From positions 26,128 to 90,127 of the forward strand of contig CAYWVZ010000001.1 of assembly GCA_964462215.1 (NCBI GenBank): a stretch of DNA of 64,000 bases, given 5' to 3'. The notes beneath the pieces are model-generated. The model was given only the letters and a program-made list of their open reading frames with translations, did not search any database and was not told the origin of the DNA. A program made the translations under genes and the position numbers. Origin of the DNA: an uncultured Candidatus Saccharibacteria bacterium. GTDB taxonomy: Bacteria > Patescibacteriota > Saccharimonadia > Saccharimonadales > JAUPVS01. This document shows positions 6,914-26,936 of the stretch, in pieces; position 1 is the stretch's first letter, and every line of letters begins with the position of its first letter.

Positions 6914-7022
6914 GCATACCGGTCATGAACCCTGAGGCGCTTAAGCAGCTGACTCAATACATGGATTGTTTGATAGAAATGGACCTACATGCAAAACGTA
7001 TCGCAACAGAGATAAGTGCGAC

Positions 7023-7055: not shown

Positions 7056-7116
7056 GCTAACTAAAGGAAATGATCACTTAACAAGTATTTGTTCGCTGGG
7101 GTGTATAATTCTGACT

Positions 7117-9686: not shown

Positions 9687-9795
9687 TGGGACTTGTCTAG
9701 GATTCAAACAATTAGTTAACGTAACTTCCGTTGCGTAGTTATGCCGTAAAATGGGCAGCTACGTAAAAAAGAATAGGCATAACTGCTTGTTTGGG

Positions 9796-9842
9796 TCCTA
9801 GACAGTCCAGCGTGGCTGTCCTTTTTATTTGGTCTAGCTTTC
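9796..9842 (-). repeat. decayed att-like repeat copy 3 (overlaps a plus-strand terminator-like hairpin at 9801-9830)
   Basis: TCCTAGACAGTCC..CTGTCCTTTTTATTTGGTCTAGCT compared with GGTCTAGGAAC..GGTCTACCTTTTTGACTGCTTGGTCTGGCT in the good copies; same orientation. Confidence 0.5.
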
Positions 9843-9887
9843 ATCGCTGGCATGTGTCATTACTTGTCGCTTGCAAAGGAGAAAGCT

Positions 9888-12067: not shown

Positions 12068-12919
12068 TTACTTTGTATTCTTGTCTTTTAGGATGGTAAT
12101 TAAAGCAATACTCAGATGCAATACGGTGTGTGCATCTTCATAATCTGGATCGTTGTCAGTGCCAGAGTTATGTACGCTTCTTTTATTAACAAAAGAAGTC
12201 AATGAGGTTATTAATGATGGCCAATCAAGAATATCTTTTTTCGGTAAGTCCAGTTTATCAATATTATCTGAGATTTGCTTTGCATATTTACCTAAGTTGG
12301 TCGTTTTGTCATCTGGGTAGAGTCTGTCCCTGATTGCTCCCGCTAGCTGATCTAGTGATTTCTGCACTACGCTAGGGAGATTTTGACGCGATACATCGTA
12401 TAGGTCATTCCACGCTTGCTGTATGCGTTTATTATCCTCAAGCTGTGAAAGCTGTAAGTCAGCTTCTTCTGGAACTCTGAATTGCAAACTTATGGACACA
12501 CTGTGCCAATTTGGATCTGGAAGCCCCTGATTATTTTGCCGTACCGGCTTAGACTCAGAATGAACTGTATATTCTGAATTTGCCCCACTTAATATGTCCT
12601 CAAGCTCCCTGGCCGATGCATCATCTGGGTATGTCTGTAGAAGGTAGTTGATGTAATCTGCGATAAGCTCATTATTGCCTGATATTGATGCAGTGTGCGC
12701 TTCTAAATTATCTCCAAAGCTGCGTCTAAAAGCAGCGCTAATTTTTGCATTAAAACTATCGCTGATAGTTGTGTACATAGTGTTATACACTGATGGTTGA
12801 GGCGTATGGCCCTGTACATGGGCGCTAATCCATCTGAATACAGAGTCTTGCAAGAAAGGCGGAAAGCCTTTGGTTATCTCATTGGCATTATTATCTGGGT
12901 ATAAACGGTTAAAACTCAT
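12068..12919 (-). CDS. hypothetical protein; its C-terminal helix pair resembles an abortive-infection Abi_C-type domain
   Basis: 283 aa. The C-terminus VNKRSVHNSGTDNDPDYEDAHTVLHLSIALITIL is reminiscent of the RN..aHG...a..l.la motif of Abi_C. Weak by-eye similarity only. Confidence 0.35.
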   Translation of the reverse strand: MSFNRLYPDNNANEITKGFPPFLQDSVFRWISAHVQGHTPQPSVYNTMYTTISDSFNAKISAAFRRSFGDNLEAHTASISGNNELIADYINYLLQTYPDDASARELEDILSGANSEYTVHSESKPVRQNNQGLPDPNWHSVSISLQFRVPEEADLQLSQLEDNKRIQQAWNDLYDVSRQNLPSVVQKSLDQLAGAIRDRLYPDDKTTNLGKYAKQISDNIDKLDLPKKDILDWPSLITSLTSFVNKRSVHNSGTDNDPDYEDAHTVLHLSIALITILKDKNTK

Positions 12920-13016
12920 GCGAATATTTGTTGGAGCAAGTTTTTTGGATTTTTTACTACTCCAGCTTCCTTTTAACTGGTTCTATTTTATCACCTTAGG
13001 TAATAAAGAGTCGGAT

Positions 13017-13646
13017 TTAGAGAGATACATATTTCCTCTTGCTCCCATTTTTCAATCTTTCATTTACTTTCTCAAGTACTGACTCTTTTGCTCTTAGATT
13101 GTTCGCTGCTGCAAACTGTAAGAACCACAAAGTCCACTTAATGGCAGTATCGTAATCATTTCCGTCCAGAAGTGCCGTTGTCTTTCCTGAAAAGTGGATT
13201 GTTTTTGAACATTCATTATATAACTTCTTCAATACAGTAGGCTTGCTGGGATTCGTAGGGATTCTTGCCACCATTTGTGTGTATGTTTGACGGACATTAA
13301 CAGGATACTTTTTGTCGTCAGACTTTGGAAAATGTTTACCGTCTTTGTATGCCTTTATGAAATCCCTTAGTTCTGGACCCTCCAGCTTACGAACCTCGTT
13401 GATAATTGACATGCTTTCTGCCAAGAGTCTGAGTAGTGCAATAATTGCCAGCGTATGGCTTTTGTCTCCATTCTCTATCAACGCTTGTATTGAACGTCCA
13501 GTAGATACCGTATATTCGTGGTAATCACTCAAAAGCGTGAAGTAATATCTTTGTTTGCTTTTTTGAGGCACGATACTTACAAAAGCTGTAAAACTTTCCT
13601 CAACATCTGTTATCGCTTGACCTATCTGTTGCGACTCCTTTGTCAT
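13017..13646 (-). CDS. hypothetical helical protein, translationally coupled to the type IIG enzyme gene
   Basis: 209 aa. ATGA overlap with the upstream gene (13643-13646). No recognisable motif. Confidence 0.5.
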   Translation of the reverse strand: MTKESQQIGQAITDVEESFTAFVSIVPQKSKQRYYFTLLSDYHEYTVSTGRSIQALIENGDKSHTLAIIALLRLLAESMSIINEVRKLEGPELRDFIKAYKDGKHFPKSDDKKYPVNVRQTYTQMVARIPTNPSKPTVLKKLYNECSKTIHFSGKTTALLDGNDYDTAIKWTLWFLQFAAANNLRAKESVLEKVNERLKNGSKRKYVSL

Positions 13647-16600
13647 AATTTCTCAACAATGGTGATTTCTTCGGGGGTTAGGTTGTAGAGTTTGTAGACA
13701 AGCTGGTCGATTTCTTGGTCGGTTTTTTGGATTTGGGTATCGAGTTCGGCACATTCTTTTTTGTACTTTTCGAAGAGTTGGAGGAGTTCGTCTTTTTGCT
13801 GGAGAGATAGCTTCACTTTGAGGACTTTTACGAAGTCGGCGAAATCAAGCGTCCACCATTTGTTGAGTTTGGCTGCCCATTTTTCAATACCATACTCAGA
13901 TGATATTAACTTTCTAAAACTGTTCGATTTGTTTTGCAGGGTGGCGATTGCGTCAAGCATTGCTATAGAAAGTTCTTTGATATCATCATTTGGCACAACG
14001 ATAGGAAAATTAGCTAATTCACCAGCTTTCATTTGCGGGAATAATCCGCGCTGCATCTTACCTAACTTATTTACAAACCAAAACGATATCAACTTAGAGT
14101 TTAAGATACCGCATAAGGCTGGCAATAGCGAGACCTCATCATCATTTCGTCCGTAAACTACTATATAATTTTGGTCATTATAATAGTTCTCAGGAACGAC
14201 CATTGCCTGTATGGAGTGTGGCAGTTGTGATGGAATCACTCTAACAAGCAGGTGCATCTTATCGAACAGCTCCAGCCGTCTTGGTTCTCCCAGGTTATTC
14301 CCATATTTGATATACTCGCCAGACCAATCTGCATAGTATCGCTTTACATCACTTCCGCCAAAATAAGGCTTCCAATCAGACCCACTCGGTACATGAGAAT
14401 GGTAGACTCGTTTTTGACCCATTTCTTTATCTTGTTCAGGCGTTCCGTTACCAAGCTTGTAGGCAACCAGTCCATTTGAAATGGCGACTATGTCCTTTAG
14501 ATTTTGCCGCCCAGATTCAATCTTTTTCACAAGGTTCGCTTTTTCAGGACTTTGATACATTTCAAAGTTAATAATGTTGTCGCCATCAACAAAAATGTTC
14601 TTATCAATTCTTAGGATTTCAGTAAGTTCGCCGTCTGTCATATTATAAGCAGTAAGATTCTTGCTGGTCTGGTCTTTTTTGAATGTCGAAATCATAGTAT
14701 CAACATTTGCATCTGAAAAAACTTTTCCATAGATATTAACAATGTTAATTTCTGACGTATTTTCCAAAAAGTATTTACGGAAATCAGCTAACGAACGGAT
14801 AGTTAATACGTTATTTGGAGATATAAAAGATAGATAGCCGCCCGTCTTTAGTATCTCAAAGGCTTTTTCAAAGAAGTATATGTCAGTTCTAGGCTTGAGC
14901 TTATAGAGAATATATTTATCACGATAGTAAAGACCCTCTGGCTTGCTCATATTGTTACTGCGCAAGAAAACATACGGCGGGTTGCCAACTACCACATCAA
15001 ATCCGCCATTCTTAAATATCTCTGGGAATTGCTCTTGCCAGTTAAAGGCTTTGTCGCCAGCAACTTCCGAGTCGTCAATCAGGCTATTACCGCACTTTAT
15101 GTTGTTGTCCAACGCTGTGAGTTTCTTGCCCTTTTGGGCGGTCTTAAGCCACAACGATAGCTTGGTAATCTCTACTGATTCATCGTTAAGGTCAACACCG
15201 TAAATGTTGTTTTGCAGAATTGATTTAATGTAGTCATCGCTACTAAATAAGTTGTTGCCAAGTATACTCGCAACACGTTTGTTTTCTGCGAGTAAATAGT
15301 CAAAGACGTAAACTAAGAACGCACCCGAGCCACAAGCAGGGTCAACCACTTTGACGTTCTGTAGAAACTCCTGATATTTGTTGTAGGCTTGTTTTTCACG
15401 CTTCTCATAGTTTCTGTCATTGATGTCGCCCTTAAGCGCAAACTCGTCTTTGAACTTGTCTTCATGTTCTCGCAGATATGCACCAAGCGAATTATCTACG
15501 ATGTAACGGACGATGTAGTCAGGTGTATAGAAAATACCGTCTTTCTTGCGCCGAGATTGCTGGATTGCTTCTAGGTTTTGTTGCTCATTGACCTTGCTTT
15601 TAATTTCTTCCAGATCGCTGATAGATTGCTCAAAGATATGACCAAGAATCGTAACACTCAAGTCTTCATCGAAATTGTAATTACTGAGCGTTAGAACTGA
15701 ACGTAATGACTCATCGCTAATCTTCAGACTGTTGAGGTCTGGGTCGTGTTTGAACAGACCACCGTTATAACCGTCAGGAATCTCCAACTTGGGGCTACCA
15801 ACGTCAATAGCTTCAAAGAAACCTTTGAGCGTACTCCACAAGCTACCGCCAAACACAGAACTATCAGCAGCCTTTACGACACGTTGTAGGGTGTTATCTG
15901 GCAATAAGCCCTTGTCTTCGGCGAACGCCGCAAACACGATACGGTCTATAATCTTCTGGGCTTTTTCGATGCCAGTATCTATGTCTGTTCTGATCTGCTC
16001 ATTCTGTCGGTAAATGTCACGGAGTAATTCAAGACGAGCCTGGCGGTAGACTTTGTAAAACTTCTTACCAATTTCTTCTTGTTCAAAGCGGATGTCACTC
16101 AGTAAGTCCTCGGTTTTACTCGAACCTTTCGGTGTTGTGAGGTTGTCGCTGTGAATGAGTGTGTAGAACGTCTTGAACTTTAGGTAGTCGTCTTCAGGAT
16201 CAACAAGATCGTCTAACGTCCAGAGTTCATAGTCTAGTTGGTTGTCGTGATATAAGCGGAATTCCCAGAAGTTGCTGACAATAACAAACGGACAGTTGCG
16301 ATACTGCGTTTTATACTTAAAGCCTTGCTGAACTGGACTCATGTTACCTTCACGGCGCTGCGGACGGTCTAGCTCAATGGCAGCACCTTTTAGCTCAACT
16401 ACTGCGGCTATGTTCTTAATCTCACTCGAGACATCCGTGTGACTAAGCACGGCATCAGGTAGCTGACCTTTGTCTGTGGTGGCTTTTGGTTCAAAACTAT
16501 AGGGAACGGCTGGCTTCTCTTTGTAGCCAAGTATCTTAATGAAAAAATCTTGATTATAGGCTTGCTCACGAGATGTTTCTTTGTCTCGCTTGAGGCTACC

Positions 16601-16726
16601 GTTATGGTAGTCATGGTGCCATGTTTTGACGATAGCGATTTTATCTTCCAGATTCGAAGTCTCTAGTTTAGACGCTATGTCACGAAGTTTATTTTTTCCG
16701 AACAGGCTTGCCATATTAGACAACAT
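13643..16726 (-). CDS. type IIG restriction-modification enzyme (N-terminal PD-ExK endonuclease + gamma-class N6-adenine methyltransferase + target-recognition region; MmeI/Eco57I-like)
   Basis: 1027 aa. QLPDAVL...AVVELKG (PD...ExK). VVDPACGSGAFLV (motif I). VVGNPPYVF (motif IV). Long C-terminal specificity region. Confidence 0.8.
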   Translation of the reverse strand: MLSNMASLFGKNKLRDIASKLETSNLEDKIAIVKTWHHDYHNGSLKRDKETSREQAYNQDFFIKILGYKEKPAVPYSFEPKATTDKGQLPDAVLSHTDVSSEIKNIAAVVELKGAAIELDRPQRREGNMSPVQQGFKYKTQYRNCPFVIVSNFWEFRLYHDNQLDYELWTLDDLVDPEDDYLKFKTFYTLIHSDNLTTPKGSSKTEDLLSDIRFEQEEIGKKFYKVYRQARLELLRDIYRQNEQIRTDIDTGIEKAQKIIDRIVFAAFAEDKGLLPDNTLQRVVKAADSSVFGGSLWSTLKGFFEAIDVGSPKLEIPDGYNGGLFKHDPDLNSLKISDESLRSVLTLSNYNFDEDLSVTILGHIFEQSISDLEEIKSKVNEQQNLEAIQQSRRKKDGIFYTPDYIVRYIVDNSLGAYLREHEDKFKDEFALKGDINDRNYEKREKQAYNKYQEFLQNVKVVDPACGSGAFLVYVFDYLLAENKRVASILGNNLFSSDDYIKSILQNNIYGVDLNDESVEITKLSLWLKTAQKGKKLTALDNNIKCGNSLIDDSEVAGDKAFNWQEQFPEIFKNGGFDVVVGNPPYVFLRSNNMSKPEGLYYRDKYILYKLKPRTDIYFFEKAFEILKTGGYLSFISPNNVLTIRSLADFRKYFLENTSEINIVNIYGKVFSDANVDTMISTFKKDQTSKNLTAYNMTDGELTEILRIDKNIFVDGDNIINFEMYQSPEKANLVKKIESGRQNLKDIVAISNGLVAYKLGNGTPEQDKEMGQKRVYHSHVPSGSDWKPYFGGSDVKRYYADWSGEYIKYGNNLGEPRRLELFDKMHLLVRVIPSQLPHSIQAMVVPENYYNDQNYIVVYGRNDDEVSLLPALCGILNSKLISFWFVNKLGKMQRGLFPQMKAGELANFPIVVPNDDIKELSIAMLDAIATLQNKSNSFRKLISSEYGIEKWAAKLNKWWTLDFADFVKVLKVKLSLQQKDELLQLFEKYKKECAELDTQIQKTDQEIDQLVYKLYNLTPEEITIVEKL

Positions 16727-16802
16727 TATACCTTAAAAACAGATATAAATCTGGAAGATTCGCCTAGACTTTATATTCCTTTGCGGTACCTTGTACCTTG
16801 CT

Positions 16803-18077
16803 ATGGAAACAGTCCCAGAACTCAAATACTGCCTGTATGCACGAAAATCGAGCGAGTCCGATGAACGGCAAGCTATGAGTATTGACTCGCAGTTGGCGGA
16901 AATGCGTGCCCTTGCGCAAAACCAAGGATTGGATGTAGTGTGTGAACTGCAAGAAAGCCACTCGGCAAAAGACTCGGGGAAAAGACCTGTCTACAATCAA
17001 CTACTGCAAGGCGTGAGGAATGATGAATATAACGCCATTCTTACATGGGCACCCGACCGATTAAGTCGTAATGCCGGTGACCTGGGTGCAGTTGTTGACC
17101 TAATGGATCAAGGTAAGCTGCTTCACATAAAGACGTATTCCCAAACGTTTACGAATAATCCGAATGAAAAATTTTTGTTGATGATTCTCTGTTCTCAGGC
17201 CAAACTAGAAAACGATAATAAAAGTATCAATGTGAAGCGTGGTATCAAGGCAAAGTGCGAGATGGGATGGAGACCGGGCGTTGCACCACTAGGCTATATA
17301 AACCGTACATTTGGCGGAGTTAGTGATATTATTCCTGATCCGGAACGAGCTGAGGTTATAACTGAAATGTTCCATAAAGCATCTCAAGGTTGGAGTGGGC
17401 GTAGGTTAAAAGATTGGCTCGATGAAAAAGGTATTACTACTCGCAGCGGAAAACCAGTTCCGCTCAGTAGTTTGTTGGCAATGTTAATAAACCCCTTTTA
17501 CTACGGAGAATTTCAATATCCTGAGGGTGCAGGAGCGAAATGGTACAAGGGGGCACACAAGCCGCTCATATCAAAAGAACTGTTCGATGAATTACAACAG
17601 ACACGTGGAACCAATAAAGGAATATGGGGCTCAAAACAGTTTGCGTTTCGTGGGCTTATAAAATGTGGCCAGTGTGGTGCTGAGTTCACAGCTCAGGAAA
17701 AGTTCAAGAAGTTGAAGAACGGTGAATTTAACCGGCATGTTTACTACAACTGCACACGAAGAGTTGATCGAGACTGCACAGAAAAGTACATCAATGAAAA
17801 AGACCTGTGTGTGCTACTCCAGGAGTTCATTGAAAAAAATCACGACAAAATACACTTTACCGACAAACTGCGAGCTAAAATAGAAAGGCATTACCAAGTC
17901 ACCAAAACTCTACTTGGGCACTATGGCCTTGAGCAGTCGTTGGATGTACCATTTGTGGAGTATTCTAGATATATTCTAGTGCGAGGTACAGAGGCTGAAC
18001 GTGTAGCGTATGTCAACGGATTTACGACAAAACTGCTTATCAATGACGGCAATCTACTTATCCAGCCAGCGCGATAA
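16803..18077 (+). CDS. large serine recombinase (resolvase domain + recombinase domain + zinc ribbon)
   Basis: CLYARKSSESDERQAMSIDSQ (catalytic Ser region). ILTWAPDRLSRN. CGQCGAEF...YYNCTRR..DC zinc ribbon. Confidence 0.85.
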   Translation: METVPELKYCLYARKSSESDERQAMSIDSQLAEMRALAQNQGLDVVCELQESHSAKDSGKRPVYNQLLQGVRNDEYNAILTWAPDRLSRNAGDLGAVVDLMDQGKLLHIKTYSQTFTNNPNEKFLLMILCSQAKLENDNKSINVKRGIKAKCEMGWRPGVAPLGYINRTFGGVSDIIPDPERAEVITEMFHKASQGWSGRRLKDWLDEKGITTRSGKPVPLSSLLAMLINPFYYGEFQYPEGAGAKWYKGAHKPLISKELFDELQQTRGTNKGIWGSKQFAFRGLIKCGQCGAEFTAQEKFKKLKNGEFNRHVYYNCTRRVDRDCTEKYINEKDLCVLLQEFIEKNHDKIHFTDKLRAKIERHYQVTKTLLGHYGLEQSLDVPFVEYSRYILVRGTEAERVAYVNGFTTKLLINDGNLLIQPAR

Positions 18078-18102
18078 AACCTGATACCCTATAATAGATA
18101 GT

Positions 18103-18918
18103 ATGAATGATGCAACTATTTTCTACTCTTGGCAGAGCAACCATAAAGAAACGAAAAACTTCATAAACAAGGCTTTGAGCGATGCGATTAAGACCTTGTC
18201 GGGTAATAACACATTAGAAAAAGCACCCAGACTCGATAAGGACACGCAAGGAACTGTTGGATCTCCCAACATCGTCAGCACCATTAAAAACAAGATAGAT
18301 AATTGTGGCATATTTATTGCCGACGTTTCAATTGTTGACGAATCAAAAAGTGGCAGAAAACTTGTAAATCAGAATGTGATGTTTGAGCTTGGTTACGCTA
18401 TCGCCAAACACTCAGAGTTAAATGTCGCTATGCTGTTTAATGCTGACCTGGGTGATCCAAAAGACCTGCCTTTTGATATCTCACACCACCGAGTGCTGCA
18501 GTTTTCCGTTAAGGATGATGACAAAAATGGCACAAAACTGAAAGCGAAGTTAGTCGGAGCACTCACAGCACACCTAAACAGTCTGACAGAACAGGAAATA
18601 TCACAAGTTGAGCAAAGCTTGGACGAGATCCAGCTACTAATCATGAGGGTGTTCGCCTCCATGACTGACGACAAGAGAATTTTGGTTTCTGCTCATTTGG
18701 GTGGACATAGCTTACACCCAATGAACCCCGTAGACGACAGTCTGCTGAGTCAGCTTAATCGGATAGACATCCAAGAGCTTATTGCAAACATGGATGACCT
18801 TGTAAATACTGGTATTCTAACCGTAGATTATGGTAGTAAAGGGACACCTAACTACAAGCCTGCGAAGCAAGGTTTTGAGATTATTAAGATACTGAATAGT
18901 AAACAAAACGAACCTTAG
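18103..18918 (+). CDS. TIR-like / nucleoside 2-deoxyribosyltransferase-like domain protein with a helical C-terminal domain
   Basis: 271 aa. IFYSWQSNHKETKNFINKAL ... CGIFIADVSIV ... NQNVMFELGYAIA ... LPFDISHHRV is a pattern recalled from bacterial TIR-like domains. By-eye assignment. Confidence 0.5.
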   Translation: MNDATIFYSWQSNHKETKNFINKALSDAIKTLSGNNTLEKAPRLDKDTQGTVGSPNIVSTIKNKIDNCGIFIADVSIVDESKSGRKLVNQNVMFELGYAIAKHSELNVAMLFNADLGDPKDLPFDISHHRVLQFSVKDDDKNGTKLKAKLVGALTAHLNSLTEQEISQVEQSLDEIQLLIMRVFASMTDDKRILVSAHLGGHSLHPMNPVDDSLLSQLNRIDIQELIANMDDLVNTGILTVDYGSKGTPNYKPAKQGFEIIKILNSKQNEP

Positions 18919-18988
18919 GGTAATCCATACATCAAAACTAAGTGAAGATCATAAAAACCAGAAAAACCCGAAGATCAAGGGTGTCCTA

Positions 18989-21900
18989 TTAGGCTGTGAT
19001 ATTTTTGTCGATAAGCTGTGTTAGCCTACTAAACTCACGGTCGGTGTCGTCTAGCCAGTTAGTTGACCATATGCGGTACAGCTCCCAACCCTTCTCTTCG
19101 AGCACCTTTTGACGGTTATAGTCGCTCTGTTCTTTATCAAAGCCACTGTGGTACATTGCGCCGTCCATTTCTATACCCAATACAAATTTCTTGTGCTTGG
19201 TAGAGAATACTCCAAGATCAATCCTAAAACCAACATTACGTTCATTAGCATCTATGCCTTCACCAGTAGGAATTAGTAAATGCCATCCAACCTCACTGTA
19301 TATCTTAATGGAGTGACCGAGCTGATCCGCATAATGATCTGTCAACTTCTCATAGAGTTGTTGCGTTAGTGGCGAATCGAACCAATTGACATTATTGCCC
19401 AGCTTTCGATCAAGATATGTAGTGTCCGTGACTTCTCCAGCATTTTGCAATAGTGCCTTCATCAATTCGGCACTCTTACGGGCATTCGGTCCAGTTAAAC
19501 CGCTGCTTATTTTATCTTCACAAGTCTGTATCCAGCGGGATTTTTGATCCGCTAGTAGTAATTTCAAGCCTTCTCGTTGACGAGTAATCGAGACGTTTAG
19601 ACGCTTGTACGCACCGGCTGCTTCTTTGAAGAACCACATAGCACCAGGTGACGAGTAATGTTGCATATAGATTATCGTGTAGGTACCTTCAATGCCCTGA
19701 CAGTTTGTAACAGTAGAAAGTAGAATCTTATCAGTTCCATAGAGCCGTGAAATGTTCTGATACTTTTGCTCACCGATTTGAGTCAAGAAGTTCTTAAACT
19801 CGGTTAGTTTATGCCCAGTAGTGAAAAGGATACAAAAACTTGAATCGCTATCCTGAACCAGATATTCATCAACTGATTCGCAGATTTTGTAAAAGTTTTT
19901 ATCATAACCAAATTCATCTTGGTCATCACCTAAATCGTCAATGATGTCTATAGGCGCACCGTTAGCAAGTTCCGCTTCAAAGATTGGCTCAATTCCATCT
20001 TCACTATAAATAGCCTCGCGGGACGGCTCAAACAACTTGTTGTATTTGGAACGGTAGTGAACTTTAAGGTGGTGCTGTTTCTGCGGTTGCTTTCGTGCTA
20101 AGTCTAGTATGCTCTCTCCTAGATCATCGAAATCATCTTCCGATTGTTCGGTCAAACCAATACTAGCATTCAGGCTAGGGGGCATTTGGTGTGGGTCGCC
20201 AATAATTACTGCCTTCTTGGCACGATATATTGATGGTAGCGCTTGACCAGGCAATAGCTGCGATGCTTCATCAAAAATAACAAAATCAAAAATACCTTTG
20301 TCTGGTGCTATATACTTTGAGACTTCTTTTGGAGTGGCACAGATGACAGGAAAGGCACTCGCTATAGTTGCAGTGTTGTGCCTGAATTTATCCATAGTAG
20401 ACTTACCGCCCAACTGCATAGTTGACTGTTTCGACAATTCTCGCATTGCGTCCAACGAGCTACTATATATATGTTTAAGGTTATCTTTATAAGTTTGAGC
20501 TTTTTGGCTCTTTAAATACTTTTCATAACTATCGACAATATCCTTAGTAGTAACGTGTTTCTTGTCACTTAATCCAGCACGCCCAAAACTCTCACCCACC
20601 AAAACATTCACCAATCGTGACGCAAACACATCAAAGGTTATATCATTATTTAGTATTTCGTCTAGATACTGGCTATTTGCCCCACCAAGAGCTTGCCTAA
20701 TACTACTTATTGATTTATTGTGCTGTATAAAATCGACGATCTCGGAATCATTATTGTAAATTGACAGGATATTTATACTGCTAAGCCAATCCTGGAGTGT
20801 TTTTTCCTGTGGAAGTTCGAAAAAGAAATCGGAAAACAAGTCTAATTGATTTACTTCATTAATCGTCGTAACGAGCTTTTCTATATCTGAGTTTATCGAT
20901 GCATTATCGTCTGGCAGCGACAAGGTATCAGTAACTTTTCCAATAACTACTTCGTTCCTATCTAAATATTCATAAACCTCTCTGGCTCTTGCGGCATATG
21001 AGTCTGTTTCATTAATACCAATGAGCCACTTGCTGTTTTCTGAGAATGAATTCTGCGTTAGAACCTTTTGCTCATTCAATACTTCAGACTTCTTCTGCTG
21101 ATGATGCTTGATATCTATAGCCTGATTAGCGTCAGTTACGAAATCAGTCAGTTTCCCACCAAGAAATGCTTTTTTATTGTTTGAATCTTGTCGTAGTAAA
21201 TCTAGTGCTTTGACACTACGGCTAAATTCCGAGAACCATCCACTAACCTCTTTGAATTCACCAGCAATTGATGCTGAGCCGTATTTTTTATTTATTATGT
21301 AAAAAAGTTCATACACCGGTAATAACCTATCCTTTAAGACGGTTATGTCTTTAGATGGCTTAACACCCAGCTTTGATAGTTCAATAGTACTATTCTTGTT
21401 AGCCAATCCAATGAACTGCTTAATATTCGACCCATCAATATCTATAATTTCTTTAATCGCATTTAGAATTGGTGCGAAACTTTCCCTATAGGTATCCATC
21501 TGCTTTGCGTTTTCGAATGCAAGCAAATCTTTAAAATTTTTTGGTACACCACTTAACATCCGTTTGATAGAGTTTTGAGCATAGTACTTATCCAGTTCTC
21601 TATTTAGTACATCGATATCTTTTGCGGTTAGCATATAGACTGTATCTTGACCACCCTCTATAGTTTCGCTCAATACGGACTTGATTTGTTTTGCCATACC
21701 GATGAGAAGATTTGATAAGCTAGAGTACTTGACATCGGGTGCCGTTCCTAAGACCACTTTGACTAGTTCGGGTATGCGTTTATGATCCTGTAATAACTCA
21801 CCGAAATCTTGTTCAGCGATGGTTATTGCTTCGGCGCTAAGTTTGATTTGCTCATTTAATTCGTCAGGTATATTGATTTGATATTTAGCACTCTCCGCTA

Positions 21901-22843
21901 CAGAGGTTATGTGCTTATCAATACGCTGAAGCTTCTCGTTATTTTCATGCGTGCCATCTATGAAGTCTTTTAGACTTTTCGTTAGCTCTCCGACTTCCTT
22001 ATGCTCTGTTGCAATCCTATAGGTATCTATGTATTGGATGGATTGATTGTACTTCTGTAACATGATCAGATAGTCAACGACATCTATACTCGTCTTGGTT
22101 GCAAACCGATTGAGATAGTCTCCTTGAAATGTATCGTTTATATTCTTGATCTGCTCTCGAATATCCGGCAATATTATGTTGCTATTCTTGGTAGACAAAA
22201 GTATCAGTTCCCGTCGAGGCTTATTAAATTCCGTAAAATAATCTTTATGCTCGTAGGAATCAAGCTCGGTAAAAACTGCTCGAACGTTAACTTTTTCAAA
22301 TTCTCGAACAGATTCTGGTGCCATGGACCGTCTAACGTATTTGATATAGTAGCCGACCAACTCATCGAAGCCTATATCATCTGACGTGATGTGATAGTTG
22401 CTATTGTGATCAAGAGTCGTGTAGCGCAGAGGATATTGTATAGCTGAAGGTCTGTCTGCCAAAAAGATATCGGGAAGTTGCTTGCTAGTGATTTTAGAGT
22501 ATTGCTCGCGTAAATATTTCAGATACCTATGCGTGGGGTTGTGAAGCATCAAACAAAAGTCCAAAAGTGATAGATACTTATTGTCATTAGGATAGCCTAT
22601 CGTGGACTCGGTGTGCTTTATCATACGCTCTATCACCCTAAGTGCTTCTGTGTTCTGGCTCACGAACAGAACCTTCTTGTTTTCACCCGCTAATCTTTCA
22701 AGCAAGCTAACTACTAGCTGAGACTTTCCGGTTCCCGGTGGTCCATAAACAATTTGTATAGTAGCAGGGTCATTATCAATAGAGTTAAACGTATTCTTTT
22801 GTGACGGATCTAGCGAGCTGAATGTTATATTGTTCTCGCTCAC
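18989..22843 (-). CDS. SF1 (Dna2/Upf1-like) helicase with a large insertion and a C-terminal DUF559/Vsr-like PD-(D/E)XK endonuclease domain
   Basis: 1284 aa, GTG start. LDPSQKN...VYGPPGTGKSQLVVSLL...VLFVSQNTEALRVI (Walker A). FVIFDEASQL (Walker B). IIGDPHQMPP. NVSITRQREG. C-terminus GIEMDGAMYH...VLEEKGWELYRIWSTNW. Confidence 0.8.
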   Translation of the reverse strand: MSENNITFSSLDPSQKNTFNSIDNDPATIQIVYGPPGTGKSQLVVSLLERLAGENKKVLFVSQNTEALRVIERMIKHTESTIGYPNDNKYLSLLDFCLMLHNPTHRYLKYLREQYSKITSKQLPDIFLADRPSAIQYPLRYTTLDHNSNYHITSDDIGFDELVGYYIKYVRRSMAPESVREFEKVNVRAVFTELDSYEHKDYFTEFNKPRRELILLSTKNSNIILPDIREQIKNINDTFQGDYLNRFATKTSIDVVDYLIMLQKYNQSIQYIDTYRIATEHKEVGELTKSLKDFIDGTHENNEKLQRIDKHITSVAESAKYQINIPDELNEQIKLSAEAITIAEQDFGELLQDHKRIPELVKVVLGTAPDVKYSSLSNLLIGMAKQIKSVLSETIEGGQDTVYMLTAKDIDVLNRELDKYYAQNSIKRMLSGVPKNFKDLLAFENAKQMDTYRESFAPILNAIKEIIDIDGSNIKQFIGLANKNSTIELSKLGVKPSKDITVLKDRLLPVYELFYIINKKYGSASIAGEFKEVSGWFSEFSRSVKALDLLRQDSNNKKAFLGGKLTDFVTDANQAIDIKHHQQKKSEVLNEQKVLTQNSFSENSKWLIGINETDSYAARAREVYEYLDRNEVVIGKVTDTLSLPDDNASINSDIEKLVTTINEVNQLDLFSDFFFELPQEKTLQDWLSSINILSIYNNDSEIVDFIQHNKSISSIRQALGGANSQYLDEILNNDITFDVFASRLVNVLVGESFGRAGLSDKKHVTTKDIVDSYEKYLKSQKAQTYKDNLKHIYSSSLDAMRELSKQSTMQLGGKSTMDKFRHNTATIASAFPVICATPKEVSKYIAPDKGIFDFVIFDEASQLLPGQALPSIYRAKKAVIIGDPHQMPPSLNASIGLTEQSEDDFDDLGESILDLARKQPQKQHHLKVHYRSKYNKLFEPSREAIYSEDGIEPIFEAELANGAPIDIIDDLGDDQDEFGYDKNFYKICESVDEYLVQDSDSSFCILFTTGHKLTEFKNFLTQIGEQKYQNISRLYGTDKILLSTVTNCQGIEGTYTIIYMQHYSSPGAMWFFKEAAGAYKRLNVSITRQREGLKLLLADQKSRWIQTCEDKISSGLTGPNARKSAELMKALLQNAGEVTDTTYLDRKLGNNVNWFDSPLTQQLYEKLTDHYADQLGHSIKIYSEVGWHLLIPTGEGIDANERNVGFRIDLGVFSTKHKKFVLGIEMDGAMYHSGFDKEQSDYNRQKVLEEKGWELYRIWSTNWLDDTDREFSRLTQLIDKNITA

Positions 22844-23697
22844 GATTCATAGTCCTTACTGTCAAGCATCTTTCCCCACGCAGGATCAACGTACTCGGCC
22901 TCAAAGCCGGTAACAATCTGAAACGCCATATACTGAGGATTAATCTTAACACTTTTGTATTTAGCAGATAGATTAACGCCATTCATATACTCCGATATAG
23001 TATTTACTTGATTTGCAAAATCAGCATCCAGCGTAACCTCAAAATTATTCGAACGTTTCCGGCCTATTTCATTACCGAAGAAGTTTTTGTCTAGCCAAAA
23101 ATTGATAAAACCTGTTTGCTCTACGGTAGCGTTAAATTTATTTAAATCTAATTCTGGACAAGAAAATAAAAAAAGCGGATAGTTTGCTACTTTATCCTGA
23201 TAGTCAACTACCTCAACCAGACCAATCGTTAAGTAATGCATACGGTCACCCGTCGTACGATATTGAGTATCAGTTTCCTTCTTTAGCTTGTCTAGGTTAC
23301 GACTGATCAATCGGCGCTTAGCTGCTTCAGATAACTTATCCCATATATCACTATCTTTCTCGGTGTTGAATCTTAGTCTATTTATTAAGTTAGCCAGGGA
23401 AAGTTCACCACGCGCTTCGACCTGACGAACTACTTCGTCGTAGCCATTTTTGTCAAAAACCAGGCCCGGCTGGTTACGGCCACCAAGCCTTTGCCATACC
23501 CCTATTGGGGCTTTTGCTTTTTCATCTACTTCAAATAGGGTTTGGTTATCCGGAGTATTCTTGTCAAACACCAAAGATAATCCACTTGCTAAGTTGCCGC
23601 TAGCTATACTTCCTCTGTTGCCAACCAAAACACGCCTAAACTCACCGAATTGCTTCGTATTACTGTACTCAAGAATACTGTCATAAGCGGTAGTCAT
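22840..23697 (-). CDS. hypothetical protein resembling a detached DUF4011 N-terminal module of DUF4011-helicases
   Basis: 285 aa. GTGA overlap with the helicase gene. RMHYLTIGLVEVVDYQDKVANYPLFLFSCPEL resembles the LyLalGfLeW....aPLlL.Pv core of DUF4011. By-eye only. Confidence 0.45.
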   Translation of the reverse strand: MTTAYDSILEYSNTKQFGEFRRVLVGNRGSIASGNLASGLSLVFDKNTPDNQTLFEVDEKAKAPIGVWQRLGGRNQPGLVFDKNGYDEVVRQVEARGELSLANLINRLRFNTEKDSDIWDKLSEAAKRRLISRNLDKLKKETDTQYRTTGDRMHYLTIGLVEVVDYQDKVANYPLFLFSCPELDLNKFNATVEQTGFINFWLDKNFFGNEIGRKRSNNFEVTLDADFANQVNTISEYMNGVNLSAKYKSVKINPQYMAFQIVTGFEAEYVDPAWGKMLDSKDYES

Positions 23698-24039
23698 CTA
23701 GCGCAATTATATCATAATAACAGGGCTAGATATCGGTCTAGGAACCCTGTCTGGTTTTCGGCTGCACAGTCCTCGTAATCAGGATTGGTCAGTTCGGGAA
23801 CCGTTTAACAGAGATGAGAATGAAAGAACCGCTATTTCTAGCGGTTCCAACATCTGTACTTTGTAATCAGCACGTTTCTTTCTTGGCTGACCAAGGAGTT
23901 AAATGAGGGACCGGTCTAGGAACTCGGTCTACCTTTTTGACTGCTTGGTCTGGCTCCGGGGACTGGATTCGAACCTGCAGTAGTTACCACTTTATTTCAG
24001 GCTCGCTTTACTTTAGCTTACATCTGTAAATTATCAAAT
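23698..24039 (-). repeat. inter-cassette junction unit A (secondary decayed att copy, spacer with hairpin, att hairpin+core, tRNA-like remnant)
   Basis: Alignable along its length with units B (25081-25424) and C (26598-26936). Core at 23942-23959; secondary copy at 23733-23772. Confidence 0.8.
23951..24038 (-). pseudogene. tRNA-like remnant (CCA, 3' acceptor half, decayed T-arm; no 5' acceptor strand)
   Basis: The reverse complement ends ...GGTTCGAATCCAGTCCCCGGAGCCA. The 5' region cannot pair with the acceptor 3' strand. About 85-nt block conserved with 25342-25424. Confidence 0.65.
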
Positions 24040-25080
24040 TTAATAAGTAAGGGTAATATTATGTGTAGTAAGATCAATCTTCGCCAAGCCGCCATAGGGC
24101 ATAACGATTTGCGGAGCTGTATGCCCGAAATCTAAGTTCTGAACAATAGGAATATTGGCATTGTATCCCCGGACTGTTTTTACGATTGTCTCGCGCTGTT
24201 GTTTCTTGTAGGCGTCTTTCTGCTCCGGCGAGTTTGGCTTATCGAATTCCCATGACTTTGGTCGTCCAACTAGTACTCCTTGAAAGATATCAAACCACCC
24301 ACGTTCGCCGAAGCCTGTCAGTAGGTACTCAACAATCCATGCCTCGGGGATATCCTCCGCAGTTTCGATAAATAAAATCGTGCCCTCTAGGTCTTCTTGC
24401 TTGGGTAAATACTTTTCGGCAGAACACTGTACTATGAGTGATTCAACGCATCCGCCCCACAAAACACCTTCCCCGCTTTTATCACCATCCCACTTTAGTC
24501 CATCATTTGGCTCAAATTGGCGCTGTTTATCCAGATTTTCTTTTACTGACCAGTTGAGCCCGATGTCATTGAATTCACTAGAAGACTCAACCGCTAGCTC
24601 TCCTGTCTCAAAAAGCGCTTGTCTTAGGTATTTAACATTAAGGTCCGGAATTTTTTGCTGAAAAGCCAATTCAGTCATAATCCCGCCGCCATAGTAAGAG
24701 GGAATACCTAACCCCCATAGAAAATTATGCAAATGAGTGTTGTCGCTATATCCGAAAAATGGCTTAGGATTGGCAGTGAATACTTCAGGGTTGAGTAGCT
24801 TAATAAGCTTTATTTGGTCTTCGCCGCCAATAGAAGCAAACACCGCCTTGTTAGCCTGATCACTAAACGCGGCCATAATATCCTGGGCACGATCTTCCAG
24901 TGATGAGCCCATTTGCCGAGTAGTTGGGTACTCTTTTGGAATCAGTTGAAAGACGTTCTGTAATCTTTCCAGTCCTAAATCCTGTACCCATGGAAATAAA
25001 CCTGGGAGGCCAGCCGAAGGAGAGATGACGCCAACCTGATCGCCAGGCTTAAGCTTTGGAAGTTTCAGGAAGGTTTTCAT
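24040..25080 (-). CDS. S66-family LD-carboxypeptidase (MccF/LdcA-like serine peptidase)
   Basis: 346 aa. LKPGDQVGVISPSAG ... FASIGGEDQIKLI ... FFGYSDNTHLH ... DFGHTAP is the family motif order. Confidence 0.75.
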   Translation of the reverse strand: MKTFLKLPKLKPGDQVGVISPSAGLPGLFPWVQDLGLERLQNVFQLIPKEYPTTRQMGSSLEDRAQDIMAAFSDQANKAVFASIGGEDQIKLIKLLNPEVFTANPKPFFGYSDNTHLHNFLWGLGIPSYYGGGIMTELAFQQKIPDLNVKYLRQALFETGELAVESSSEFNDIGLNWSVKENLDKQRQFEPNDGLKWDGDKSGEGVLWGGCVESLIVQCSAEKYLPKQEDLEGTILFIETAEDIPEAWIVEYLLTGFGERGWFDIFQGVLVGRPKSWEFDKPNSPEQKDAYKKQQRETIVKTVRGYNANIPIVQNLDFGHTAPQIVMPYGGLAKIDLTTHNITLTY

Positions 25081-25424
25081 AGATATATAGTATCAGTTTT
25101 CGGTCATGGAACCCGGTCTGCCTTTCGTCTGCTCGGCCGTCGTATAGGCGACAGGTCAGTTTCGGAACCGAATAACAGAGCTAACAAGTAAAAATCAGTC
25201 GCTTACGACAGTTCCAACAACCACACTACATAATTCTTATTTTGGGAAACCGGGCTCGAACCGAATAACAGATAAGAGGTGGTTTGAGAAAATAGAAAAG
25301 ACCGGTCTAGGAGACCGGTCTACCTCTGTTAGTGCTTGGTCTGGCTCCGGGAACTGGATTCGAACCAGGAGTAGCTACCACCCAATTTCAGGCTCGCTTT
25401 ACTTTAGCTTACATCTGTTATTTA
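25081..25424 (-). repeat. inter-cassette junction unit B
   Basis: Roughly four-fifths identical by eye to unit C over about 260 nt. Contains an extra tRNA 3'-end fragment TGGGAAACCGGGCTCGAACCG (25243-25263) and the duplicated motif CGAACCGAATAACAGA. Confidence 0.85.
25342..25424 (-). pseudogene. tRNA-like remnant (intact T-arm CTGG/ATTCGAA/CCAG, 3' acceptor half, CCA; no 5' acceptor strand)
   Basis: The reverse complement ends ...CCTGGTTCGAATCCAGTTCCCGGAGCCA. The upstream part (GCTAAAGTAAAGC..) does not fold as a cloverleaf. Confidence 0.65.
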
Positions 25425-26570
25425 TCAAAATTCTAGCCAAGTTGTGTCTGAACCGGCGCCCTTGTTCCTGACGCGAATACCTGGATCTGCTGTCACTAAA
25501 CCAATTTCCTGAGCATTTACTCCACGCTCCTCAGCAAGCTCAAGTACTTTATCTGGATCAGGCGTTGCAATTACCATGCCTGGGCCCATGTGCCATTTGC
25601 CATACGCTGTTTTATCGTCAAAGCCACGGATTTCCTGCATTTTGAGCATAATATCTGGTGGTGTATTTGGGTTTGCTATTTCTACGCCAAGCCCACTCGG
25701 CTCAAGCATACGCCCTAGTTTACTTGGTTGACCGCCACCTGTAATGTGAGCGACACCTGTCACCCTTGCGAGGGCAGGTTTAGAAATGTCATAACCGCCA
25801 GTTAGTTCAGAGACGAAGCCAGAGTAAATTATTGATGGAGCTTGTACTAGTTTCCCTAGAGCAACATCACCAAGAGAATGATCGACTGTATTGTGCCAAT
25901 TATCACCATACTCTTTTTTCATTGCTTTTCTAACGTCAGTAATACCATTTGATCGGAAGCCGTGCTCACCAAGACCTATAAGCTTATTTCCGGGCTGGAT
26001 TTGATGACCCGTAAGAATCCGATCTCTATGTGCCATCCATAAAATCGCTGCACCCCAGTTGTAGTTGAATGCACCGTAGCCACCTACCCTATCTCCAAGT
26101 TCAGCTACTTCGCCATTTACAACTGCCACATTCGCAAGAGCTGCTGCAGTTACATAGCCGGTTGCAAGTTGTCGTAATGCTTCTCGCGTATGTTCGGTAT
26201 CATCGAGCTGACGTACATCAAGGATCGTCCCAATTGCTAGCGGCTCTGCACCACGTACGACAGCGTCGTCACAAACCATTGCAAATAAATCATGGGCAAC
26301 TGTCGAATGGTCATCGACTCGTTCAGCTACCTCTACTTTTGTGCCGACTCCGTCGAAGCCTAGGTTTATTTCAAGGTTCACAAAATCTTTGTCAGCGAAT
26401 TGCGCGAGTGGAATTGAACGAAAGCCTGAAAATGACTCGTGAGCCTCTCTTACTAAGCCTGGTCGGTTGTCATGTGTAAGCTTCGAAGCCTCATAAAGCG
26501 CTCTCGATGCATCATCGCCAAGTTCAATGTTTACATCCTGAATAACGCCTCGTTCTGTCATATTATTCAT
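25425..26570 (-). CDS. purM: PurM-family protein (AIR synthase / phosphoribosylformylglycinamidine cyclo-ligase homologue), orphan
   Basis: GFDGVGTKVEVA..HDLFAMVCDDAVVRGAEPL, NGEVAELGD, GLGEHGFRSNG and VAHITGGG align with E. coli PurM motifs. Start ambiguous (26570, 26561 or GTG 26597). Confidence 0.75.
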   Translation of the reverse strand: MNNMTERGVIQDVNIELGDDASRALYEASKLTHDNRPGLVREAHESFSGFRSIPLAQFADKDFVNLEINLGFDGVGTKVEVAERVDDHSTVAHDLFAMVCDDAVVRGAEPLAIGTILDVRQLDDTEHTREALRQLATGYVTAAALANVAVVNGEVAELGDRVGGYGAFNYNWGAAILWMAHRDRILTGHQIQPGNKLIGLGEHGFRSNGITDVRKAMKKEYGDNWHNTVDHSLGDVALGKLVQAPSIIYSGFVSELTGGYDISKPALARVTGVAHITGGGQPSKLGRMLEPSGLGVEIANPNTPPDIMLKMQEIRGFDDKTAYGKWHMGPGMVIATPDPDKVLELAEERGVNAQEIGLVTADPGIRVRNKGAGSDTTWLEF

Positions 26571-26597
26571 CAGTATACTAACAGATAGATTAATCAC

Positions 26598-26861
26598 AAA
26601 GCATATCCAGTTTTAAGCATCGGTCATGGAACGCGGTCAACTTTTTTCCTGCTGGGTTGCCATAGGGCTGACTGGTCAGTTTTGGAACCACCTAACAGAG
26701 GCCGAAAGTAAGAATCAGCTAGTTACAACAGTTCCAACATCCACACTACATAATCCATATTTAGGGAAACAGGACTCGAAACGGATAACAGATAAGGGGT
26801 GATTTAAGTAAATAGAAAAGACCGGTCTAGGAAACCGGTCTACCTCTGTTAGTGCTTGGTT
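26598..26861 (-). repeat. junction unit C (native downstream flank of tRNA-Asn, template of units A/B)
   Basis: Same architecture as unit B: secondary decayed copy at 26621-26661, conserved GTTCCAACATCCACACTACATAAT block, hairpin at 26819-26841. Confidence 0.8.
26811..26841 (-). terminator. rho-independent terminator of tRNA-Asn
   Basis: On the minus strand the arms AGACCGGT and ACCGGTCT pair (8 bp, 7-nt loop), followed by CTTTTCTATTT. Confidence 0.65.
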
Positions 26862-26936
26862 TGGCTCCGGGGAGAGGATTCGAACCTCCGACCTGGGGAT
26901 TAACAGTCCCTCGCTCTACCACTGAGCTACCCCGGA
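26862..26936 (-). tRNA. tRNA-Asn (anticodon GTT), CCA encoded
   Basis: Reverse complement: TCCGGGG TA GCTC AGTGGTA GAGC G AGGGA CTGTTAA TCCCC AGGTC GGAGG TTCGAAT CCTCT CCCCGGA G CCA. 75 nt, cloverleaf folds by hand. Confidence 0.9.

Follow-up and report, generated by a model that had tools for sequence, protein, structure and literature searches.

In the composite islands of the staphylococcal cassette chromosome mec (SCCmec), large serine recombinases (LSRs) act at the 3' end of a conserved gene, and cassettes without ccr genes are mobilised in trans by the Ccr recombinase of a neighbour. [quoted passage not shown] The tycheposons, or tRNA-linked islands, of Prochlorococcus are another described case (Hackl et al., bioRxiv 10.1101/2020.12.28.424599). 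The present study deals with an array of recombinase-less cassettes downstream of the tRNA-Asn gene in a 64-kb stretch of a Candidatus Saccharibacteria genome; this whole stretch is called the window, and all coordinates refer to it. Saccharibacteria and other bacteria of the candidate phyla radiation (CPR) have genomes smaller than 1 Mb with few recognised mobile elements. By what route CPR bacteria acquire adaptive genes is an open question; the single tRNA-Asn locus studied here gathers very diverse cargo. The array is a real and widespread system that seems to be undescribed; no earlier description of it in Saccharibacteria was found in full-text literature searches of incomplete coverage. 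The best reading is that it belongs to a known kind of arrangement, site-specific accretion with non-autonomous members. For CIMEs, such accretion was reportedly set out by Pavlovic et al. in 2004.

The cassette array downstream of tRNA-Asn

The only tRNA called near the array is tRNA-Asn(GTT) (26862-26936, minus strand; ARAGORN, Rfam 70.5 bits, cloverleaf fold). It forms one border of a low-GC island of ~21 kb (~6015-26936, ~42% GC against ~54% in the host), the other border being a distal junction, E. Within the island, decayed copies of the tRNA, here called pseudo-tRNAs (PSI), alternate with cargo genes. An earlier note, made from the letters of this DNA, had described tRNA-Asn followed by two single-gene cassettes with ~340-nt junction units, A to C, and this pattern was borne out. 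Units B and C show 80% identity over 284 nt (25083-25366 against 26603-26886), units A and B 87% over 133 nt (23909-24041 against 25300-25432), and a three-way alignment with A was made. The T-arm/acceptor pattern GGTTCGAATCCNNTNCCCGGAGCCA occurs three times and the hairpin AGACCGGTNTCCTAGACCGGTC four times, each against 0.00 expected from shuffled controls; besides the full tRNA-Asn, the T-arm/acceptor copies stand at 25342-25366 and 23951-23975. The heptamer GGAGCCA is present seven times on the minus strand of the 64 kb, and five of the seven copies are array junctions. The cargo stop codons lie 0-3 nt from the conserved block. The parts of the two tRNA-proximal cassettes are as follows.

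26862..26936 (-): functional tRNA-Asn(GTT); its last bases, GGAGCCA (26862-26868), are the proximal junction core
26598..26861 (-): unit C, the 5' arm of the PurM-like cassette, with type I trailer, tRNA 3'-end debris and a fossil second core/trailer
26819-26841 (-): intrinsic terminator hairpin of unit C
26572-26599 (-): promoter-like site of unit C, ending at the ATG
25425..26570 (-): cargo 1, AIR-synthase-family PurM-like protein, 381 aa (Pfam AIRS and AIRS_C)
25342..25429 (-): PSI-B, distal end of the PurM-like cassette, core GGAGCCA at 25342-25348 (nhmmer E=1e-25)
25081..25341 (-): unit B, the 5' arm of the S66 cassette, with type I trailer/terminator at 25299-25321 and debris at 25243-25263
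24040..25080 (-): cargo 2, S66 LD-carboxypeptidase-family protein, 346 aa (Pfam Peptidase_S66 and S66C)
23951..24038 (-): PSI-A, distal end of the S66 cassette, core GGAGCCA at 23951-23957 (nhmmer E=1e-23)

Each of these two cassettes thus carries one non-recombinase gene, with GGAGCCA cores and conserved arms at both sides. The order amylase-tRNA-PurM-like-PSI was recovered at 100% identity in locus L005 and the order PSI-S66-PSI, also at 100%, in L003 (loci outside the window are given by such numbers), both in independent short-read Logan assemblies (SRR16798009). Because these independent assemblies reproduce the junction contexts exactly, the array is no assembly artefact, and the presence of the cassette pattern beside tRNA-Asn is confirmed. 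L003 has the repeat at both ends; this is a break of the de Bruijn graph, as expected at a shared 34-mer, and does not count as evidence of an excised circle.

The earlier interpretation was partly supported. It was largely right; the recombinase, the whole length of the array and the composite make-up of the junctions had escaped it. The array had been placed at 23698-26861, and it was found to run from ~6015 to 26936 with two further junctions, at 6865-6945 and 6015-6080. The cassettes themselves have no recombinase, as was said, but the array as a whole does, since an LSR gene (16791-18077) lies in a 17-kb element of the same island, 6 kb beyond unit A. The ~340-nt unit that had been treated as one thing is composite: a PSI closes the upstream cassette, and after it stand the 6-bp crossover core GAGCCA and the 5' arm of the next cassette, made up of a terminator-bearing trailer, fossil sites and a promoter-like site. 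A and B had been called sister cassettes with different cargo instead of duplications, which agrees with the unrelated Pfam content of their genes.

The same block flanks varied cargo next to tRNA-Asn in many other genomes, which is what the earlier note had proposed to look for. A scan of one genome per species with a pattern of T-arm, CCA and trailer gave 30 loci, nearly all in Candidatus Saccharibacteria / Saccharimonadales metagenome-assembled genomes, and a metagenome scan with a block-specific pattern gave 36 further loci from varied environments. An nhmmer profile of the PSI found ~55 full-length copies in ~50 Saccharibacteria loci, every one in the orientation of tRNA-Asn and with the tRNA or another PSI 1-7 kb upstream of it. 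The 24 cassettes that are bounded at both sides measure 1.0-7.1 kb (median 2.5 kb) and hold one to eight genes; ten of them are single-gene cassettes, and an LSR is present in none. The stop codon of the last sense-strand gene falls within ~30 nt of the 5' edge of the PSI in 25 of 32 cases. Three outcomes had been named in the earlier note as fatal to its reading, namely a block absent from other genomes, units A and B arising by recent local duplication with homologous cargo, and remnants folding as functional tRNAs; all three were examined and none was found.

The array cargo comprises 219 open reading frames (ORFs) in 172 clusters, of which 150 representatives match 171 Pfam families. The commonest are Fic, NUDIX, HAD hydrolases, P-type ATPases, phosphotransferases and methyltransferases. 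Two modules recur, as judged by eye from translations: a CsoR-like repressor with a Cu-ATPase-like pump, and a molybdoenzyme-like protein with an MFS-like transporter and a phosphoglycerate-mutase-like protein. A 488-aa ORF beside many PSIs was considered as an integrase and rejected; it has no LSR similarity and resembles, by eye, a membrane-anchored molybdoenzyme, so it was counted as cargo. The CsoR and Cu-ATPase module (L014, L017, L030, L034, L044, L065, L068) follows tRNA-Asn or a PSI depending on the genome, and in L044 it fills the cargo slot of an LSR element. In several Saccharibacteria a group I intron of ~235 nt sits in the anticodon loop of the tRNA-Asn gene itself and splits it (Rfam Intron_gpI, 74-99 bits; L007:4496-4730(-), L014:155-390(+), L016:5495-5725(+) and probably also L017). 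ARAGORN misses these genes because the intron interrupts the anticodon loop; the cassette array is still present downstream of the 3' exon.

Alignment with the real tRNA-Asn shows the PSI to be a full-length decayed copy of 88-89 nt. ACAG(A/G)(T/G)G replaces the 5' acceptor strand TCCGGGG, TAAGCTAAAGTAAAGC stands in the place of the D-arm and a short CCT...AGG hairpin in that of the anticodon arm; in the 3' part the T-arm is well kept and the 3' acceptor strand is variable, and then comes GGAGCCA. Conservation reaches at least 90% in the segment TAAGCTA..GTAAAGCGAGCCT across 48 distinct PSI copies, and since the neighbouring acceptor strand varies freely, a part of the PSI is under constraint as DNA or RNA sequence. 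A promoter-like sigma-70 motif, TTGA(C/T)A-N16-TAAAGT, lies in the 5' half of most PSI copies and points into the T-arm and trailer. It was scored on the minus strand at 25401-25428 (PSI-B, TTGATA-N16-TAAAGT) and at 24010-24037, and the cargo stop codon is often inside its TTGA.

The trailers that follow the core are of two types, and unit A differs in type from units B and C. In type I, carried by units B and C, the trailer is an intrinsic terminator of canonical form, with a 10-bp stem and a T-run. Type II, which unit A shares with junctions D and E and many other loci, has a ~63-nt hairpin directly after CCA and a GGAACCG...CGGTTC terminator ~45 nt past it. Eleven base pairs of type II show compensatory changes in ten loci (window 23825-23950 (-), L001, L006, L011, L018, L030, L033, L039, L056, L065), and the apical motif AGACC..GTTCC..GACC is invariant. 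On the most parsimonious view, every element that takes over the DNA downstream of tRNA-Asn has to provide a functional 3' trailer and terminator, and the keeping of hairpin and terminator by compensatory change fits the need to terminate tRNA-Asn transcription after each insertion. Neither trailer type has an Rfam match; the type II trailer could also yield a discrete trailer-derived RNA.

Farther into the units there are decayed T-arm-like and trailer-like copies, and then a promoter-like site at the cargo ATG or a few bases before it. The decayed copies, including the debris and second hairpin noticed before, are read as fossils of older junctions. TGGGAAACCGGGCTCGAACCG is present at 25243, as had been stated; CGAACCGAATAACAGA, which was said to occur twice in unit B, is exact once, at 25257, and its copy near 25163 has one mismatch. 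The fossil core/trailer of unit B ('motif 2') lies at ~25098-25127. In the window, -10-like elements end 0-8 nt 5' of the cargo ATGs (26572-26599, 25081-25100 and 23711-23740, all minus strand) with no obvious Shine-Dalgarno sequence, which suggests near-leaderless or leaderless cassette mRNAs.

Both cargo proteins are divergent members of their families, and their function is uncertain. The PurM-like protein scores 148 bits against the 236-bit cut-off of NCBIfam purM, and the S66 protein 39 bits against the 378-bit cut-off of the LdcA model. Saccharibacteria are generally described as a group without de novo purine synthesis, and a lone PurM-like gene is therefore odd. The 381-aa gene call was also found in L005 and L036. 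The S66 protein is identical in another array context (L001, L002, L004) and has a ~87% DNA homologue in L033. Exact look-ups of the PurM-like and Exo_endo_phos proteins, the latter from a cassette described below, gave no new contexts.

The GAGCCA core, the linked recombinases and movement between lineages

All 48 distinct PSI copies end exactly at GGAGCCA. Beyond it, at least eight unrelated families of right arm are found (the two trailer types, AGCATAAGCA..., AGAT..., ATTTTGA..., simple terminators and others), and 25 PSI copies have right arms that are not trailers. On the other side, ~11 trailers are preceded at |GAGCCA by left arms that are neither tRNA nor PSI and belong to several unrelated families; junctions D and E, three sites in L027, and L033, L048, L052 and L069 are examples. 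L044 and L071 agree at 97-98% as far as GGAGCCA, and directly after it they are unrelated. The core GAGCCA consists of the acceptor-stem end, the discriminator base and CCA. Such free combination of left and right arms around a fixed 6-bp core is the signature of site-specific recombination at the tRNA end. Homologous recombination cannot make these junctions because the sequence on one side of GAGCCA is unrelated. A crossover 5' of the T-arm was considered, as the PSIs of L001 share the host acceptor sequence; it was rejected as a rule, since the PSI acceptor strands of L065 and L069 differ from the resident tRNA. By eye, no LSR-type attB dyad symmetry is evident around GAGCCA.

The only recurrent recombinase family among the 150 array protein clusters is the LSR. 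No tyrosine integrase family has two or more members among these clusters, and Pfam detected no tyrosine recombinase or Phage_integrase domain in the ORFs of the window island. LSR genes are present in nine loci: one subfamily is shared by the window, L018, L039, L044 and L056, others occur in L001, L047 and L069, and L008 has a fragment. In every case the gene runs antisense to the tRNA and lies beyond the last PSI, on its distal side. In L047:18-1559(+) and L069:5164-6633(-) the LSR reading frame crosses the GGAGCCA core and stops inside the adjoining PSI, which is where an integrase gene is classically found, beside its attachment site. The last 4-17 LSR codons of L047 and L069 depend on the DNA next to the integration point. 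In L066 a truncated ORF with weak LSR similarity (E=6e-4) overlaps the PSI.

In the window the LSR belongs to a 17-kb element that begins with unit A. The features of this distal part of the island, where junctions D and E were located by BLAST of the units against the window, are the following.

23698..23950 (-): unit A, the proximal arm of the 17-kb LSR element, with type II trailer
~23889-23950 (-): type II long hairpin of unit A
23825-23848 (-): intrinsic terminator of unit A
23711-23740 (-): promoter-like site of unit A
6914..23950 (-): LSR-bearing integrative element, 17 kb (Pfam, direct repeat, synteny with IMG/VR contigs L073-L079)
16791..18077 (+): LSR, 428 aa, antisense to the tRNA, candidate recombinase of the array (Pfam Resolvase, Recombinase, Zn_ribbon_recom)
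6865..6945 (-): junction D, distal end of the LSR element, with element-specific T-arm-like arm GGGTTCATGACCGGTATGC, core GGAGCCA at 6907-6913 and type II trailer
6110..6844 (+): Exo_endo_phos-family single-gene cassette, 244 aa (Pfam), between junctions D and E
6015..6080 (-): junction E, distal end of the island, with T-arm-like arm GGGTTCAAGACCGACAGGT, core GGAGCCA at 6047-6053 and short trailer

An intact LSR with its three domains and att-like junctions at both ends make this an LSR-type integrative element. It is flanked by a 52-nt direct repeat with four mismatches, beginning at GGAGCCA. In the orientation of the tRNA it encodes a 285-aa unknown protein, a 1284-aa helicase-nuclease, a TIR protein and the LSR, followed by restriction-modification (R-M) and other genes; the Pfam assignments include an MmeI-like type IIG R-M enzyme, DUF2779, a terS-like helix-turn-helix (HTH) protein and a ParB-methylase. 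The terS-like protein and the ParB-methylase were found in the Pfam search of the window, which detected no capsid, portal or large terminase, and in the 17-kb element no primase or polymerase was detected beside the helicase-nuclease and ParB-methylase. A defence island lies inside the element at 13643-22843: the MmeI-like enzyme has 1027 aa, the TIR-domain protein (271 aa) is of the CAP12/Pycsar type, the 1284-aa protein is an AAA_11 helicase fused to an MTES_1575 nuclease domain, and the 285-aa protein upstream has no Pfam match. The Exo_endo_phos gene runs opposite to the other cargo, and beyond junction E the GC content climbs to the host level.

Relatives of the 17-kb element were found in IMG/VR. 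The window LSR is 71-77% identical to proteins of IMG/VR contigs, and the synteny covers the ParB-methylase, the terS-like protein and DUF2779. In two of the contigs (L073, L078) BLAST showed an element arm followed by GAGCCA, a trailer-I-like unit, cargo and an antisense LSR; the arm family of junction D is present in both, and also in L027. A scan of IMG/VR for the PSI pattern gave no match, and a regular-expression search for a tRNA-like attP in the IMG/VR LSR loci found nothing. The contig of L078/L079 (IMGVR_UViG_3300009873_002614), which bears a viral label, encodes the window-type LSR twice, together with an FtsK/SpoIIIE-like translocase, an ABC-F-like ATPase and R-M genes, with no recognisable virion genes among the ten proteins scanned, and it looks more like tandem ICE-like elements than like a phage. 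Given the FtsK/SpoIIIE-like protein on this one contig, these LSR elements may be ICE-like rather than phages.

Two comparisons show that recombinase-less cassettes have moved between distinct lineages, on the sequence evidence very recently. Over 1,151 nt (25127..23977) the window and L001 have the same S66 cassette DNA (100% identity), with flanks of 76-90%. The tRNA-Asn regions of the two are only 76% identical, and the neighbouring cargo differs: on its 424-kb contig, the S66 gene of L001 has succinyl-CoA ligase and an acetyltransferase on one side and PadR-ABC-FtsX genes and a different LSR on the other. L065 and L069 share 3,683 nt with one mismatch, and the first shared base is precisely the G of GAGCCA that closes the tRNA. 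The shared block takes in the trailer and a recombinase-less three-gene molybdoenzyme cassette and runs into the PSI; the tRNA-Asn genes of the two loci are clearly different, right up to the preceding base, as are the upstream genes.

A second and smaller tRNA-anchored insertion may be present in the window. An exact 18-nt copy of the 3' end of tRNA-Gln (59040-59114, minus strand), ATCCCTCCGCCCCAGCCA, lies ~160 nt downstream of it at 58856-58880 (-), followed by ~2 kb of low-GC DNA (41-44%, 57000-59000) with a polysaccharide pyruvyl transferase-like protein and an unknown protein.

Probable site-specific accretion and the alternatives

The reading that we consider rather probable is site-specific accretion at the GAGCCA core of tRNA-Asn, with an LSR probably acting in trans, together with homologous exchange between the junctions. 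Mobile elements would insert by site-specific recombination at GAGCCA, and each newcomer would supply the tRNA with a replacement 3' trailer and terminator and push the earlier elements outward. Entry at the tRNA-proximal core fits the observed order of tRNA, PSI cassettes and LSR element. Two kinds of element would take part: an autonomous kind of 7-17 kb that encodes the LSR, as at 6914-23950 of the window, and a non-autonomous kind, a 1-7 kb cassette made of trailer/terminator, its own promoter, cargo and an 88-nt PSI ending in the core. Co-resident LSRs would most likely move the cassettes in trans, presumably excising them as circles, and PSI and trailer would serve as portable homology by which cassettes or their parts are swapped through homologous recombination or gene conversion. 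What the sequences show is the make-up of the array, its breakpoints at GAGCCA, the cassette family, very recent transfer of such cassettes across lineages and the repeated linkage to LSRs; the LSR as catalyst, circular intermediates and movement in trans are inferred.

Several points weigh against this account of the catalyst and of the latest moves. The case for LSR catalysis is one of linkage, and neither a circle nor an empty site was observed; a search for an empty site through the flanking alpha-amylase matched only the same organism. LSRs need only 2 bp of identity, and a 6-bp core with a 52-nt repeat is more typical of tyrosine recombinases. PSI, core and trailer together look like attB or attL and not like attP, so that the canonical partner rules of LSRs would not obviously predict integration here. 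The genome scan demanded a trailer after the tRNA, which biases the tRNA-proximal junction classes, and most loci are 8-kb excerpts in which the presence or absence of an LSR cannot be scored per genome. The 100%-identical S66 block ends on its right inside the PSI, just before the T-arm, and on its left in the fossil site of unit B and not in the live core; the L065/L069 block ends on its right inside the PSI, at AAGCTA. In these two near-identical pairs the right boundary lies 20-60 nt before GAGCCA. Boundaries inside the PSI and fossil site indicate that at least the latest moves of those cassettes were homologous and not site-specific.

A rival explanation is homologous recombination alone, in which the junctions are homology arms, no recombinase acts on the cassettes and the LSR elements merely share the tRNA site. 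The block boundaries just given speak for it, as do the 80-90% similarity of the junction units over 130-330 nt and the Cu-ATPase cassettes, which are mosaics of 63-100% identity per 60-nt window; these swings point to frequent homologous recombination within cargo. Natural competence is moreover established for Saccharibacteria, which take linear DNA into the genome through homologous recombination (PMC10633639). That homologous exchange also occurs, with the conserved junctions acting as portable homology, is shown by these sequence comparisons, and gene conversion between PSI copies is likely. As the only process, however, it leaves unexplained the 25 PSIs with non-trailer right arms, the ~11 trailers with non-tRNA left arms and the 3.7-kb L065/L069 block that starts exactly at GAGCCA beside differing tRNAs, and the PSI is conserved beyond the needs of a passive homology arm. 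We regard this explanation as unlikely. Still less probable is a recombinase encoded elsewhere, a host Xer-type or unlinked tyrosine enzyme, which would act at GAGCCA or at the AGACC..GTTCC..GACC hairpin, much as in IMEX elements or pdif modules, and leave the LSRs to serve their own elements. The identical 6-bp core with its long direct repeats on the flanks, a layout typical for the overlap regions of tyrosine recombinases, the many array excerpts without any recombinase and the two-arm, central-spacer layout of the trailer hairpin would suit such an enzyme, but the stems of that hairpin co-vary like an RNA terminator and are not fixed like a protein-binding site. Three LSR subfamilies are tied to the same site, their ORFs or a truncated relative reach into the PSI (L047, L069, L066), and no tyrosine recombinase was found in the window island or in two or more of the 150 clusters.

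The conservation of the PSIs would also be explained if they were functional tRNA or tRNA-like RNA genes. Their T-arm, D-like and anticodon-like helices can pair in 79-99% of the cells scored over the 48 copies, and TTGATA/TTGACA-N16-TAAAGT lies inside the block with a terminator after it. The acceptor helix, on the other hand, is paired in only 45%, covariation does not exceed that of shuffled controls in the 48 copies, and the folding energy is like that of shuffled sequence (z-scores -0.1 to -0.4). The tRNA-finder check that had been asked for gave no call on any remnant with ARAGORN or with Rfam at gathering and E-value thresholds. With single-sequence folds and pair counts adding to these results, functional tRNAs were ruled out, and functional RNA genes of any tRNA-like sort are very improbable. 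A local segmental duplication of the region downstream of tRNA-Asn, or a reused terminator and promoter module without mobility, is the most improbable account of all. It could draw on the 80% identity of units B and C and the terminator and promoter-like site in each, but the unrelated cargo and the recurrence of the block elsewhere led to its rejection: PSIs and units flank other cargo in ~50 loci of other genomes and metagenomes, identical cassettes sit in lineages with different tRNA-Asn genes and neighbours, and the base composition is foreign to the host.

A bolder extension of site-specific accretion, which we offer tentatively and think doubtful as it stands, is that PSI and trailer are no debris and are selected components of a platform for gene capture that serves Saccharibacteria and perhaps other members of the CPR. 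One tRNA locus, with LSRs acting on it in trans, would work like an integron made of quite other parts and would be the chief way in which these ultrasmall, host-dependent bacteria gain genes. Each cassette would then bring a decoy tRNA-Asn attachment site in the form of the PSI, a replacement trailer/terminator and its own promoter. The PSI promoter-like motif and the co-varying hairpin could, under such selection, also specify a small tRNA-derived RNA.

Comparison with described systems

The cargo of this locus ranges very widely; copper export, a molybdoenzyme with transporter, Fic, NUDIX, phosphotransferases, R-M and other defence, and peptidases are examples. The junction of PSI and GAGCCA is a sequence handle for mining flexible genes in metagenomes and for following uncultivated Saccharibacteria. 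The site is a possible natural landing pad, and the LSRs possible integration tools, in a phylum where genetics has only recently become possible. The system would be a natural case of non-autonomous cassettes exploiting serine recombinases and homologous recombination together.

The integron-like label of the earlier note was not sustained. Like an integron, the array is an ordered series of mostly single-gene, recombinase-less cassettes with diverse cargo at one chromosomal site. It differs in having no IntI, attI or attC, in its direct repeats, in insertion at a tRNA 3' end and in cassettes with a promoter and terminator of their own; no Phage_integrase domain was found in the island, the PSI folds like shuffled sequence, and promoter-like sites stand at the cargo ATGs. 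With neither IntI nor attC, the integron reading was rejected. IMEX elements (integrative mobile elements exploiting Xer) and the pdif modules of Acinetobacter plasmids are likewise recombinase-less, bounded by short sites, served by an external enzyme and arranged in tandem arrays, but here a tRNA provides the core with its CCA end, and the junctions have LSR genes in physical linkage. A 28-bp XerC/XerD site of the dif kind was not identified, though no Saccharibacteria dif model was applied.

SCC islands resemble the array in having elements split by short direct repeats and cassettes without a recombinase. Their target is rlmH (orfX) and their junctions have no pseudo-gene module, whereas the target here is the 3' end of tRNA-Asn. 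The array LSRs are not of the Ccr family: in NCBIfam they fall far below the Ccr and XisF cut-offs, the best score being 121.7 bits for CcrB against a cut-off of 900 bits.

The tycheposon-like label holds only as a functional resemblance. In both cases cargo elements gather at specific tRNAs of a streamlined genome with partial tRNA copies between them, and the island is the main locus of flexible genes; a minority of tycheposons use LSRs (bioRxiv 10.1101/2020.12.28.424599). Tycheposons are, however, defined by their own integrase and a replication module, and the Saccharibacteria cassettes have neither, sharing with them the full tRNA and its distal partial copy. The tycheposon remnant is a bare partial tRNA and the one here a full-length conserved PSI, and the host phylum and the tRNA target differ as well.

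The likeness to CIMEs lies in the target, the 3' end of a gene that is often a tRNA gene, and in arrays that grow by repeated site-specific insertion (PMC5704250). Both window cassettes keep an attL-like and an attR-like end and are without integration and transfer genes, and no remnants of such genes are visible inside them. CIMEs are viewed as decayed ICEs or IMEs, whereas the Saccharibacteria cassettes form a coherent family with a PSI end and one to a few cargo genes; the conserved PSI end, distinct from the arm of the LSR element, argues for a separate cassette lineage. No conjugation module was identified in the system, except for the FtsK-like gene of one related contig. The cassettes also differ from CIMEs in having their own promoter and terminator, in their recent independent transfer and in an LSR as the recombinase. 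What is distinctive among systems of this kind is thus the full-length PSI as cassette end, the self-contained design of terminator, promoter and cargo, the serine recombinases at the CCA end of a tRNA, and the host group.

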